Positions 12,001 to 15,000 of a DNA stretch of 21,421 nt are shown here, piece after piece. The stretch is from Candidatus Nanohaloarchaea archaeon (GTDB taxonomy: Archaea; Nanohalarchaeota; Nanosalinia; Nanosalinales; Nanosalinaceae): assembly GCA_047617745.1 (NCBI GenBank), contig JBLGBN010000015.1, positions 1-21,421 of the forward strand, read 5' to 3'. Position 1 is the first letter of the stretch, and every line of letters starts with the position of its first letter. Made by a program: the position numbers.

Positions 12001-15000
12001 AAGTTCCGGGAATCAGAGCTGACCGATTCCGAGATCGAGAGATCACAGGAACTAGCTGATAAATATTCAGAGGAAGAATGGTTGTACAGGGAATGAAGAG
12101 ATACGAGATAGATATAGAAGATCCCCGGGAAATACCTTCGGCATGTGACTTCGCCGAGGAAAGAGCTCTGGAGGAGGGTATGGTTCTAGTAGGGCTGAAC
12201 CACAACCACTACGGCTCGGTAAAGGGTTACAGCGAGAATCTTTCCGGACTTGGAAACGAGTTAGAGCTCGAACTTGGTTATCCTGCAGAGCTGAATAGAG
12301 AGGATGGCGGAAACATGTGGAACCACAGCCCGGAAAGCCAATGTCTAATGATCGCTACCAGAAATCGTCTGGCAGAGAAGAACCATGAGGAGAAAATGAA
12401 ATACTGGGGAAAAACAGTAGAGCAGAAGATAGACGAACTCTCGGATTTCAAACCTCTATACCGGGCAGGAGATATATACGATCAAGAAGGAGATCAGCTG
12501 GTTGGAGCCTCAGGAGACTTCACCGGAGAGACAGACCTATACCGGATATGTTTTTATGAAGGCGAGGATCATGGAAAAACTTTTCACGAAATAGTGGAGA
12601 AAGACCTAGAACTGAACGAATCGATGACGGATTTCAGGGATAGATACAAACCGGTCGACGGGTTCTACGAGGAAATACTGGGAGAAAACCCTGTAAAGGT
12701 AAGTGTTGAACCGGTCGAAGAACCCTTCATGAGATTTGAAGGCGGTAACCCTCCAAAGTACTGCATCTAGACAAACCAGTTAAAAAAATAGCCGACCGAA
12801 AACCATTCACAGGCTTCCAACGCGAGGGTAGCCAAGTGGTCAAAGGCGCAGCGTTGAGGGCGCTGTCCTGTAGAGGTTCCGGGGTTCAAATCCTCGCCCT
12901 CGCAAATTTCTATTGCTGTGAAACCATCAACTTGTCCCATAACCGATCTGGAAAGAATCTCTTCAACTTCCGGACGAAAAATGCTTCTTTCGTAACTGTA
13001 TAACGGGTCTTCGGTTTCTCGGCTTCGACAGCTTTAACGACTTTCTCAGCAGCTTTCTCGGTTTTAACCCCTTCAACCGGAGAATCCAGTTTTTTCGAGT
13101 ATTCGTCCGAATAACGAGATCCTGGCACAAAGTTTCTGAGATGGTCTCTGCCCTGCTCGTTGAAACCTGTCTTGATCGGGCCTGGTTCGACTATCACCAC
13201 TTTGACCTCTGAATCTTTCAACTCCATCCGCAGAGAGTCCGAAAATCCTTCAACTGCGTGTTTGCTTCCACAGTAGGCGGAGAGATATCTTAAACCTGTT
13301 TTACCGGCTACAGAGGACATATTGATTACTCTGCCTTTTGACCTTCTGATAGAGGTTAAGCATGTTTTAACCGCGTTAACAGTCCCGAGATAGTTGGTTT
13401 CAATATGCTCACGGAAGTTATCAATCTCCATATCCTCAACAGATCCCTGTTTCTGGTACCCGGCAGAGTTTATCAGAACTTCCACCTCAAAACGCCTTGT
13501 TGCCTCCTGGAGATCTTCTTTCTCTCTTACATCGCCATGAAAGGTTTCTATCTCCTGGTCAAGATCCTTTAAAGCGTCCTTATCTGTGTCGATTACCTTG
13601 ACATTATGGCCTCGCTGGACAAGTTTCAGGGCTGTTCTCTTTCCTATACCGTTTGCTCCGCCAGTTATCAAAATGTTCATAGGATAAACTTTGGTTCGGC
13701 GAGGTAAAAAAGAAGACGGCAGTAACAAAAAGTCTTCCGCCGAATATAGTTCATAGATGATGAGGTAATGACATCGTCTGATCTCGACAAGAGAGATGAT
13801 GACGTGAACACCCACTGATTTAAACAAGTTTTTATAAGGAGATTTTCGAAGGTAATATTATGGGAATAGACCTTAAGTCGGCAGGAATGTCCCTAGCTAA
13901 TTATTCCGCCATGGTACTTGGCGCAGCGTTTTTCTTAGCGCTGTTTGCTATGATTGCTCAGGTCGAAATCCTCAGCATAGGCGGACTACCCCTAACAGGA
14001 TGGATAGGCTATTTTCTAGGCCCGATAGCTTACTTTGTTTACAGAAGGAGAAAGTCAGCAAATATACCTGATTACGACCGGCAGGTTGAGCTCATAGGGC
14101 TTTTCGGATCTCTGATCCTATCACCTGCTTTGGGCATAATACTCGGTCTCATCCTCTACCTGATAGGTAGATTTGGATGAGGCCTTTTTTCTTTCCTCTT
14201 TTTCCACACAGTAATTTAAACCGGTTTTCAGAAGGTTAATCCATGCACATAACCACCTGGATGGAGCGTGTAGATCTGAAACAGGAGATCCAGGAGGTTT
14301 ACCTTCATACATTCCTATTCAAACTGGGAGTCAAGCTGGTATCGATATTCATACCTTTCTACATACTGGAACTCGGTTTCAGCCTCAACACAGTATTCAT
14401 GTTTTTCCTTATCTACTACGGCTCTTATCTGGTTTTCAGCTGGACTAATGCCTTAATCTGTTCAAAGATTGGTTACAAACACACTATGATACTTGCGTCA
14501 GCTCCTATAATTGCTTTCTATTTCCTGCTTAGAGGTGCCAGCAGTATAACCGAGGTCTACTCTCTGGCTCTTCTTGGAGGTTTCGCATTCAATCTTTACT
14601 GGACCGGTATGAACCCTGAAACAGCTAACAGCAGTCACGATGGGGAAAGAGAGAAGGAAACCGGTTTCTTCTTCTCAATGCCGTCTCTGGCCTCGATATC
14701 GGCACCTATAATCGGCGGTATGATACTTGCGATCTCCAGTTTTCAGGTGCTTTTTGGCGCAACCGTTGGACTGATAGCTCTTTCATTCCTCCCATTCCTG
14801 CTTACACAGGAACACTACACCGGTATGGATCTCAATCTCAGAGAGTTCATATCCGAATTTGGTTTAACCGATTTCATGACCTTCTTCTTCAAGGGCTTCA
14901 ACTCCATGGGCAAGAAGATGCTCTGGCCTGCTTATCTAGCAGTTATCATAGGAGGATCGCTTAACATTGGTGGTGCTGGATCCTTCAGAGCGCTGGGAAG

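Follow-up and report, generated by a model that had tools for sequence, protein, structure and literature searches.

Box C/D guide RNAs for the 23S rRNA A-loop nucleotide U2552 are already known, among them Pyrococcus sR25 and yeast snR52, and modification of the A-loop at U2552 and/or G2553 is described as always present (PMC7994747). Pyrococcus abyssi sR25 is assigned to U2669, the equivalent of U2552 (PMC2584109), and PMC4644070 predicts guide-directed modification of U2552 for five species of its archaeal set. In yeast, Um2921 is made with snR52, so that U2552 is RNA-guided, and Gm2922 is made by Spb1 (PMC2584109; PMC11542601). A homologue of the protein methylase RlmE is reported in Haloferax volcanii, and a guide to U2587/G2588 was sought there without success (PMC2584109). 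Methanopyrus kandleri sR24 and sR25 derive from a gene duplication; their D' guides are almost the same, and where the D guide ends an indel has moved the target to a neighbouring position (PMC4644070).

We describe a locus in a 21,421 nt window, the whole stretch of DNA analysed, from a Candidatus Nanohaloarchaea archaeon. Positions 13757-13818 (+) contain a complete box C/D sRNA, and it is probable (roughly 85%, on the sequence evidence) that this RNA guides A-loop methylation at the U2552 equivalent. Such a guide RNA would very probably bring a methylase to a single critical nucleotide of the catalytic centre of the ribosome, in a group of very small halophilic archaea without the protein enzyme that usually does this. 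As with P. abyssi sR25 and its like, a box C/D guide places the first A-loop nucleotide at N+5, but the organisms with those sRNAs have dozens of guides, whereas none other than those for the A-loop were found here. The Nanohaloarchaeota guides also have spacers of 10–18 nt rather than about 12 nt and both of their kink-turns (K-turns) are closed by stems, and a second paralogue is aimed at G2553, a site that a word search of PMC4644070 does not return. Yeast methylates both of these neighbouring A-loop riboses too, U2552 likewise under RNA guidance, but G2553 is there the task of Spb1, an FtsJ-family enzyme that is also the backup at U2552; here both sites appear to be RNA-guided and the FtsJ family was not found. 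RlmE (RrmJ, FtsJ) yields the same product, Um2552 in helix 92, but is a stand-alone protein methylase, and H. volcanii, with RlmE and no guide found, is the opposite of the Nanohaloarchaeota, in which guides are present and RlmE is absent. The M. kandleri pair is similar in consisting of duplicated sRNAs with shifted guides but has a 16S rRNA target; in the present case a shift of one base provides for two adjacent nucleotides that are modified universally, and more than one genus retains both copies.

Anatomy of the sRNA and its surroundings

The sRNA is read in the order C-D'-C'-D, with a C box of the RUGAUGA type near its 5' end, a CUGA D box near its 3' end, internal D' and C' boxes, and every box intact. 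The four-box anatomy claimed for this RNA and for a paralogue at C6:13862-13930 (-) is confirmed by the sequence of each. The features of the locus are as follows.

12910..13680, - strand: flanking short-chain dehydrogenase gene (PF00106, E 5e-43), transcribed away from the sRNA
13723..13732, + strand: A-rich stretch, candidate TATA-like promoter element, 24-33 nt 5' of the C box
13757..13763, + strand: C box AUGAUGA, invariant in the family MAFFT alignment
13764..13777, + strand: spacer of 14 nt with the D' guide; the core at its 3' side, GACAUCG(U), is the complement of 23S 2560-2566, with U2563 (E. coli U2504) at N+5
13778..13781, + strand: D' box CUGA, from the sequence and the family alignment
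13782..13794, + strand: internal hairpin UCUC-GACAA-GAGA, 4 bp in the window copy, closing the C'/D' motif
13795-13797, + strand: 3-nt bulge G-A-U directly after the internal hairpin, in the register given by the family stem count
13796..13802, + strand: C' box AUGAUGA, from the sequence, pattern scan and family alignment
13803..13814, + strand: D guide, 12 nt, complement of 23S 2608-2617 (A-loop, helix 92), with U2611 (E. coli U2552) at N+5
13815..13818, + strand: D box CUGA, from the sequence
13829..13833, + strand: run of five T, likely transcription stop, 11 nt past the D box
about 13830-13838, + strand: AT-rich TATA-like stretch, some 22-30 nt ahead of the ATG of the following open reading frame (ORF)
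13860..14180, + strand: flanking 106-aa ORF, hydrophobic by eye, matching no Pfam family

The sRNA lies between divergent genes, and the sole frame overlapping it extends the dehydrogenase gene upstream on the opposite strand. All 16 of the sequencing runs that contain the window stretch are DNA metagenomes. A+T content upstream peaks at 67–74% around -33 to -26 across 55 family members; at the promoter position the same-genus orthologues have a T-rich TTTTTAA-like box, and the element of the window copy is weak and A-rich. Most of the 55 relatives have a T run early in the 40 nt past the D box, as judged by eye and uncounted. At the locus ten Rfam families match below threshold, nine of them archaeal C/D families, with sR3 the best (24.6 bits, E 2e-4, where its gathering score is 41), and none matches at its gathering score or above.

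Archaeal C/D guide spacers are usually about 12 nt long. The window D and D' spacers are 12 and 14 nt (12–15 and 10–18 nt, respectively, in the family), and the D'-to-C' linker of the window sRNA is 14 nt. RNAalifold returned no consensus structure from the family MAFFT alignment, and because MAFFT had aligned both guide types on ACACC and not on the D box, we used a stem count anchored on the boxes instead. The terminal stem has a mean of 3.0 bp, at a 1-nt offset only (permuted control: mean 0.74, maximum 1.17), and the internal stem a mean of 3.37 bp, at a 2-nt offset only, with at least 3 bp in 38/52 cases (shuffled linkers: 0.5). In either register a bulge of 3 nt remains ahead of the tandem G-A pairs, and across the family the stems are specific to this K-turn-compatible register; the window copy itself has an internal stem of 4 bp and a terminal stem of 1 bp only.

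Guide targets in the 23S rRNA

The 23S rRNA of this genome was located with Rfam at C1:10681-13626. Positions 2-11 of the window D guide form 10 of 10 Watson-Crick pairs with 23S 2608-2617, placing U2611, itself in a Watson-Crick pair, at N+5. The D guide of the C6 paralogue forms 9 bp (eight Watson-Crick and one G-U) with G2612 at N+5, one base beyond the site of the window guide, so that the two adjacent targets claimed by the survey's finding are borne out. Alignment with MAFFT maps 2611, 2612 and 2563 onto 2551, 2552 and 2503 of a 2902-nt E. coli copy, which we take to run one below the standard numbering here, the standard length being 2904 nt. The A-loop of this genome is UGUUC, and because its first and fifth nucleotides are named U2552 and C2556 in PMC4644070, the assignments to U2552, G2553 and U2504, which had been placed by eye, stand.

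The individual duplexes differ in how readily they arise by chance. Shuffled window D guides reached 10 Watson-Crick pairs in 10/300 trials, and shuffled C6 D guides equalled the real match in 122/300, so that the latter is not significant alone. Neither D guide has a site of 7 bp or more in 5S rRNA, same-genus 16S rRNA or 35 tRNAs, and in the 27 genomes with a 23S pattern match the A-loop target GGGTGTTCACC shows no variation. The weight of the evidence for predicted A-loop targeting is its conservation across the phylum.

The D' guides of both sRNAs form 7-8 bp (seven Watson-Crick) with 23S 2560-2567, with U2563 at N+5 and thus 48 nt from the A-loop target at 2611. Shuffled D' guides equal these matches in 250/300 and 251/300 trials, and the duplex is not significant alone. 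The D' core could put U2504 at N+5, the one real support for this being the conservation of the core, kept in 47/71 family sRNAs; of the earlier proposal of a U2504 target, the numbering and the shared core hold, but the duplex taken by itself is no better than chance. Other D' guides are present in 18/71 family sRNAs, which nonetheless retain the A-loop guide. The non-core D' guides (17 in family f1) have scattered 7-8 bp matches and no consistent target, and the conserved D' guide of the sister families f4 and f5 likewise has only scattered matches of this length. Our literature search returned nothing on Um2504.

Phylum-wide distribution and protein partners

The analysis shows the anatomy, complementarity and conservation of the sRNAs, stems compatible with K-turns, the protein partners and the lack of RlmE. 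A pattern of boxes alone (ATGATGA-N11-16-CTGA-N3-30-TGATGA), holding no guide sequence, was run against 70 Nanohaloarchaeota genomes and matched in 47 of them, and the reversed control gave one match. Loci were fetched for 70 of the 77 matched rows, one for each. A D box lies 8-18 nt past C' in 53 of these loci, 51 of which have an A-loop guide; the remaining 17 have no D box and are taken as chance matches, their reading frames unchecked. The box search together with a model (R1) built from its A-loop guides yields 71 sRNAs in 48/70 genomes, with the sRNAs added by R1 biased towards an A-loop guide because of how that model was built. The D-slot guides of all 71 are aimed at the A-loop, 36 at U2552 and 35 at G2553. 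Both sites are covered in 29 genomes, in six of them by one sRNA bearing both guides. The AACACC core of the D guide is kept in 71/71 sRNAs from the 48 genomes while the remainder of the guide drifts, and in many relatives the A-loop duplex is only 7-8 bp, which falls short of the 9-bp rule in PMC4644070. Relatives had been claimed in 40 of 69 other genomes; their presence is upheld and the count is exceeded, at 46 of the 49 other same-family genomes plus one genome of another family. The G069 sRNA is identical in every segment parsed; that of G066 differs in the linker alone and lies at a similar distance upstream of the 16S gene. The Nanohaloarchaeota genomes span 0.5-1.7 Mb, most being 0.6-1.3 Mb, and some of those in the family are closed.

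Scans of the window's own genome add no intergenic C/D candidate beyond the window sRNA and the C6 paralogue. There are thus at least two, the 834-kb genome being 88.6% complete, with 16S rRNA and tRNA-Trp not found. Box matches at C3:16211, C16:4111, C20:117 and C7:23958 are coding look-alikes, lying in long same-strand frames or at a gene junction, and the tRNA introns of this genome contain no canonical C/D boxes.

In the sister families f4 and f5 a U2552 guide lies inside the tRNA-Thr(CGU) intron, with degenerate C and D boxes (e.g. AUGAGGA; CCGA, CCAA or UUUA). A literature search on tRNA-Thr introns and box C/D in archaea gave no such case among the matches listed. In Haloferax and other Euryarchaeota the tRNA-Trp C/D guide lies in the intron of pre-tRNA-Trp itself. 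It resembles the f4 and f5 guides in being carried by a tRNA intron but targets its own tRNA, whereas the tRNA-Thr intron guide targets the 23S A-loop. By its title, Additional File 4 of PMC2584109 deals with sRNAs for which Cm34 and Um39 of tRNA-Trp are the predicted sites.

Fibrillarin, Nop5 and L7Ae, previously listed as kept, are all encoded by the window's own genome, and across the phylum fibrillarin is found in 67/70 genomes and Nop5 in 65/70, with the fibrillarin gene adjoining that of Nop5. The 70 genomes yielded no RlmE/FtsJ, the best matches being 37.8 bits (PF01728) and 35.6 bits (TIGR00438) and all of them partial, which extends the earlier claim of its absence from one genome to the phylum; the only FtsJ matches in the window's own genome come from cross-matching with RsmB/F, with KsgA and with a methylase of the MTS type. 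Nop5 of this genome is 251 aa long and is without the N-terminal domain, as in the main family. In solved archaeal RNPs this domain binds and tethers fibrillarin, and because it is missing here the RNP may work in a non-textbook way. The Pfam model NOP5NT (PF08156) is uninformative on this point, exceeding its cut-off in 0/14 control genomes. The N-terminal 95 aa of Nop5 from a sister family, used as a query against the window's own genome, gave one 16-bit match, in a 180-aa ORF; it was judged spurious, the ORF being unrelated and DNA glycosylase-like by eye. A complex prediction for fibrillarin, Nop5 and a 144-aa upstream ORF scored 0.01 against a mark of 0.32 and is uninformative on binding.

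Mode of action and competing explanations

We infer transcription, RNP assembly and methylation along the following lines. The locus would give a transcript of about 62-75 nt, on which L7Ae would bind two K-turns, a terminal one of C/D and an internal one of C'/D' that the small hairpin closes, and Nop5 and fibrillarin would then join, as the features of the family suggest. The 12-nt D guide would open helix 92 of nascent 23S rRNA and pair with 2608-2617, and the C6 paralogue would act in the same way one base on, at G2612 (G2553). The D' guide common to both sRNAs would probably pair with the peptidyl-transferase strand upstream, either as a second methylation guide at U2504 or as an anchor aiding the short A-loop duplex. 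Because no RlmE/FtsJ was found in the phylum, the RNA-guided route looks like the sole route to A-loop ribose methylation.

A genuine C/D RNP might instead serve mainly as an rRNA-folding chaperone, the guides holding the peptidyl-transferase strand and helix 92 together and methylation being secondary or absent. Nop5 is without the domain by which fibrillarin is positioned elsewhere in the archaea, the duplexes are short in many relatives, and targets 48 nt apart fit the double-guide and chaperone model of PMC4644070, in which a double-guide sRNA has targets within 100 nt of each other. We regard this as unlikely, in that fibrillarin is retained beside Nop5 in nearly all genomes, U2552 or G2553 falls exactly at N+5 in every one of the 71 sRNAs, which a pure chaperone would not need, and the 18 sRNAs without the D' core retain the A-loop guide. 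That the boxes are a chance arrangement of words (GAUGAUGA occurs often in acid-rich coding DNA), or that the sRNA is a dead relic unexpressed in this genome, is very improbable. The fetched loci with no D box and the coding look-alikes of this genome show that such words do occur, and the window copy is nearly without a terminal stem and has no clear TATA box; its position between divergent genes, overlapped only by the opposite-strand dehydrogenase extension, and its intact boxes point the other way, as do the G069 and G066 copies with no difference outside the linker. Another real substrate (a tRNA, 16S rRNA, an mRNA or a pre-rRNA spacer), with the A-loop match incidental, is scarcely credible, even though the target set is incomplete because the own 16S rRNA is unassembled but for 82 nt and tRNA-Trp was not found, and shuffled guides do occasionally give a 10-bp match. 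No comparable site exists in the other RNAs searched, both paralogues are aimed at adjacent nucleotides of one 5-nt loop, and the AACACC core is as invariant as its target while the rest of the guide drifts.

The survey's proposal that this hairpin is the main reason for retaining the C/D machinery is upheld, as judged from sequence. A more far-reaching and decidedly tentative version, which we think has less than an even chance of being right, is that the C/D machine of the largest family was rebuilt around one ribosomal hairpin: one or two U2552/G2553 sRNAs would be its only guides, with two stem-closed K-turns, elastic spacers of 10-18 nt and a Nop5 without the N-terminal domain, and the guide would have escaped from the tRNA-Thr(CGU) intron and then duplicated, leaving a box-less remnant in the tRNA-Thr genes of the present genome. 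Because Nop5 has lost the tethering domain, this version entails that fibrillarin is recruited anew, by a different mode. The literature search returned nothing on Nanohaloarchaeota fibrillarin or nanohaloarchaeal C/D boxes, and for DPANN C/D sRNAs a single paper on an unrelated subject.

Very few modifications of rRNA are shared by all domains of life, and ribose methylation of the A-loop is one of them. Haloarchaea are the hosts of cultivated Nanohaloarchaeota, and these close partners would attain one essential modification by unrelated means, the Haloarchaea with the protein RlmE and with no guide found (PMC2584109), and the Nanohaloarchaeota with guide RNAs and no RlmE. With one or two guides, one target hairpin, duplexes of 7-10 bp, spacers of variable length and a Nop5 that lacks its N-terminal domain, this may be about the simplest C/D system in which to study guide rules in high salt, and methylating the A-loop may be the smallest task for which these reduced genomes still encode L7Ae, Nop5 and fibrillarin.

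Locus, paralog and RNA architecture

The DNA between a short-chain dehydrogenase gene and a 106-aa ORF contains a predicted box C/D sRNA, with a paralog on a second contig (C6) of the same genome:

13757–13818 (+), box C/D sRNA: ATGATGA, 14-nt spacer, CTGA, 14-nt linker, ATGATGA, 12-nt spacer, CTGA
Start 13680, leftward, short-chain dehydrogenase gene on one flank
Start 13860, 106-aa ORF on the other flank
C6:13862–13930 (-), paralog: boxes identical to the window copy, near-identical D' spacer, 14-nt D spacer

The long TTG-started frame on the minus strand that overlaps the sRNA does no more than prolong the dehydrogenase frame upstream. 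There is no Rfam match here at gathering score; a local search returned ten families below threshold, nine of which are archaeal C/D RNAs, with sR3 at the top (24.6 bits against a gathering score of 41; E 2e-4). The C6 paralog is immediately preceded by a dCTP-deaminase-like gene, and in other genera inspection by eye shows the 3' end of this gene ahead of many G2553-type copies. The motif GTTATTTTTAATA recurs 20–35 nt 3' of G2553-type sRNAs in many relatives (loci L087, L088, L095, L103, L105, L030 and L049, for example) and could serve a conserved downstream gene as promoter. In the window, an inverted repeat (GAAGAC...GTCTTC, 6 bp with a 21-nt loop, 13704–13736) lies just 5' of the sRNA and covers part of an A-rich putative promoter. 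The sRNA is also upstream of a 16S rRNA gene (21340–21421) that starts 82 nt from the contig end, the rest being unassembled, and that is unlinked to the 23S gene on C1; the distance between sRNA and 16S is 7.6 kb here and, for the orthologous sRNA of the same-genus genome G066, 8.6 kb.

Box-anchored comparison of 52 unique sequences, counting contiguous pairs next to the boxes, reveals two stems. The terminal stem, with one nucleotide left before AUGAUGA, averages 3.0 bp and reaches at least 3 bp in 35 of 52 sequences; permuted flanks average 0.74 bp (maximum 1.17) and the neighbouring registers 0.62 and 0.71 bp. The internal stem in the D'-C' linker, with two nucleotides left before UGAUGA, averages 3.37 bp (at least 3 bp in 38/52) as compared to 0.5 for shuffled linkers. 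Both preferred registers place a 3-nt bulge (N-A-U) ahead of the G-A pairs, the geometry expected of a kink-turn. Because the stem sequences vary between genera (CGGU/ACCG, GGUA/UACC and GUCGA/UCGAC, for example), complementarity has been upheld by compensating changes. Many internal loops resemble GNRA-type tetraloops (GAAA, GUAA, GCAA). The window copy itself has a 4 bp internal stem and just 1 bp of terminal stem. Most of 55 copies have, as judged by eye, a T run early in the 40 nt that follow the D box, and A+T content peaks about 26–33 nt 5' of the C box in the same listed copies; these features are consistent with a separate small transcription unit.

Predicted targets in 23S rRNA and conservation across the phylum

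The guides were compared with the 23S rRNA of the same genome (C1:10681–13626), with these matches:

Window D guide: 23S 2608–2617, 10/10 Watson-Crick pairs at guide positions 2–11, N+5 = U2611
C6 D guide: 23S 2608–2616, 8 Watson-Crick pairs and one G-U, N+5 = G2612
Both D' guides: 23S 2560–2566/7, 7 Watson-Crick pairs and 0–1 G-U, N+5 = U2563

No better sites were found in 5S rRNA, the 16S rRNA of G066, or 35 tRNAs. The survey's finding had named these residues U2552, G2553 and U2504 of Escherichia coli. Positions 2611, 2612 and 2563 align with 2551, 2552 and 2503 of a 2902-nt E. coli 23S copy, without indels between the two sites, and the A-loop here reads UGUUC; in PMC4644070 the first loop nucleotide is U2552 and the fifth C2556, and the alignment and this naming together therefore show the numbering to be right. 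Ten Watson-Crick pairs were reached by 10 of 300 shuffles of the window D guide, whereas 122/300 equalled the C6 D guide and 250/300 and 251/300 the two D' guides. By complementarity alone the window D guide is thus the sole standout, and the case is decided by comparison between genomes. All 27 genomes with a 23S pattern match have the target GGGTGTTCACC unchanged, which leaves no target variation for a guide to covary with.

A guide-free pattern of the boxes alone matched 47 of 70 Nanohaloarchaeota genomes (77 matches), with a single match in the reversed control. Loci were extracted for 70 of the 77, leaving out four overlapping matches within an acid-rich G056 repeat, this genome's own two copies, and one G069 copy that was added later. 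The D box is missing 8–18 nt after C' in 17 loci, which we take as chance matches. In 51 of the 53 loci with full box architecture the D slot holds an A-loop guide; in L032 and L054 it holds none. A sequence model built from the box-pattern hits (R1) found strong matches (E below 1e-6) in 46 of 49 further f1 genomes, f1 being the family of this genome and the largest of the phylum, and in a single genome from a different family; the three f1 genomes lacking one are 72–81% complete.

The parsed family comprises 71 sRNAs in 48 genomes, with D-slot targets divided between U2552 (36) and G2553 (35), noting that sRNAs added through R1 are biased towards A-loop guides, from which that model was built. 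The D' slots contain the GACAUCG core (U2504) in 47 sRNAs, a G2553 guide in five, a U2552 guide in one, and other sequences in 18. Both A-loop sites are covered in 29 genomes, six of which (G023, G030, G031, G034, G035 and G051) have a single sRNA with both guides. All 23 family genomes that are at least 90% complete have at least one sRNA (both sites in 15, U2552 only in four, G2553 only in four). The guide in G048–G050 ends ...ACACCUC before CUGA and could be a U2552 type with a G-U pair, its register being doubtful. Guide conservation is confined to the pairing part (AACACC), and the 5' part drifts, giving duplexes of 7–10 bp.

Guides in tRNA introns and in other lineages

Nine genomes of the sister families f4 and f5 (6/10 f4 and 3/8 f5; loci L235–L243 in G003, G004 and G009–G015, such as L243 around its GTGAACACCCT match) have a U2552 guide, GUGAACACCCU, after a C'-like box. 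Five of these, all in f4, lie within tRNA-Thr(CGU) introns of 203–254 nt predicted by ARAGORN, and one locus is truncated by a contig end. In f5, our own reading of the sequence makes all three loci tRNA-Thr(CGU) genes as well, position 37 being followed by an intron of about 90 nt; the ARAGORN labels differ. These intron guides have degenerate C boxes (AUGAGGA or AUGAAGA) and D boxes (CCGA, CCAA or UUUA), and share a different, conserved D' guide (...UGAGUG or ...UAAGUG) for which we found no target. The tRNA-Thr(CGU) and tRNA-Thr(UGU) genes of the genome studied here are:

C5:1569–1710 (-) and C14:1–144 (-), tRNA-Thr (CGU, UGU), introns of 67 and 69 nt

In one alignment both introns match the f5 guide-bearing intron minus its C'-guide-D segment, and they may be remnants from which the guide has moved elsewhere. 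Across many contigs of this genome, roughly one in three ARAGORN-predicted tRNA genes has an intron (26–129 nt); ARAGORN did not find tRNA-Trp or tRNA-Tyr. The tRNA-Met(CAU) intron (C16:13861–14014) contains the weak box-like words AAUGAGA, GAUGAUU and UCAGA.

In about 185,000 species genomes, two scans for D'-C'-guide-D words gave 39 stretches of the G2553 type and 28 of the U2552 type. Respectively, 25 and 20 are from Nanohaloarchaeota or archaeal MAGs mostly coinciding with the phylum genomes, and 12 and eight are bacterial, roughly the estimated chance number. Neither scan matched Halobacteria. The only other archaeal matches are of the G2553 type, one in Geoglobus with no C box at a suitable distance, and one in Nanoarchaeia. 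The latter (MAG contig locus L142) is 60 nt long, canonical in its C/D form and closed by a 5-bp terminal stem (AUGCC/GGCAU); its D guide is of the G2553 type, which makes it a convincing candidate for such a guide in a DPANN lineage outside Nanohaloarchaeota.

Methylation machinery and predicted function

Genes for fibrillarin and Nop5 are adjacent on contig C17, with L7Ae on C32; across the phylum, fibrillarin is present in 67/70 genomes and Nop5 in 65/70. The survey found no RlmE/FtsJ methylase for U2552, and this holds: in this genome the FtsJ model only cross-matches an RsmB/F-type m5C methylase, KsgA and an MTS-type methylase, and over all 70 genomes PF01728 (FtsJ) and TIGR00438 (RrmJ) give only partial matches scoring at most 37.8 and 35.6 bits, none of the latter above cut-off. 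Haloferax volcanii differs in that an RlmE homolog is reported and a guide search for U2587/G2588 was unsuccessful (PMC2584109), whereas in Nanohaloarchaeota we find guides and no RlmE.

The Nop5 gene and its upstream neighbour are atypical:

C17:10138–10893 (L007:1399–2154), Nop5, 251 aa
C17:9697–10131 (L007:958–1392), acidic 144-aa ORF without a Pfam family, ending 7 nt before the Nop5 start

Nop5 of family f1 is about 250 aa long (stop-to-stop frames of 247–284 aa in 46/47 genomes), whereas the f4/f5 frames are mostly 314–362 aa (outliers 299 and 676) with a typical N-terminus. The protein studied here aligns with residues 120–377 of the 388-residue Sulfolobus Nop5, and without gaps with residues 76–319 of a sister-family Nop5. 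As judged from these alignments, f1 Nop5 lacks the N-terminal domain, which binds fibrillarin in solved archaeal RNPs. The 144-aa ORF occurs in 46/49 f1, 0/10 f4 and 3/8 f5 genomes, shares a locus with Nop5 in 21 parsed relatives' loci (just upstream where coordinates were compared), and at least two of the f5 matches are on another contig than Nop5. Its conserved W/F-x-RxEER and MRMLGL motifs resemble, by eye, a helix-turn-helix.

The analysis confirms the survey's observation and supports its interpretation; we put the probability that the window sRNA is a functional A-loop methylation guide at about 0.85, part of the remaining doubt arising from the atypical Nop5. L7Ae would bind both K-turns and be joined there by Nop5 and fibrillarin, the D guide would enter helix 92 of nascent 23S rRNA, and fibrillarin would methylate the ribose that faces position 5 of the guide; the paralog guide, one nucleotide shorter beside box D, would direct methylation of the neighbouring ribose.

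The D' guide could direct Um2504 formation or could be an anchor or chaperone contact, and the odds are about even. Both paralogs and 35 genomes keep its core, and of the stable RNAs tested only the peptidyl-transferase strand, 48 nt away from the A-loop, is perfectly complementary to this core, a spacing that fits the double-guide definition in PMC4644070. Against such a role speak the short duplex, the loss of the core in 18 sRNAs, and a literature search that turned up no report of Um2504.

C/D guides to U2552 are already known or predicted elsewhere, including Pyrococcus sR25 and yeast snR52 (PMC2584109) and several other archaea (PMC4644070). According to the latter, sRNAs are known to evolve by duplication followed by a one-base guide shift, with Methanopyrus sR24/25 resembling the window and C6 pair in this respect. 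We found no prior report of such guides for Nanohaloarchaeota or DPANN in the literature searched. G2553 is served by the protein Spb1 in yeast and would be served by a second guide RNA in Nanohaloarchaeota. Our own scans of the genome found no guides beyond the window and C6 copies, in agreement with the two of the survey. What is unusual here is the setting: beyond this pair the genome has yielded no guides, the phylum lacks RlmE, and a second guide is aimed at G2553.
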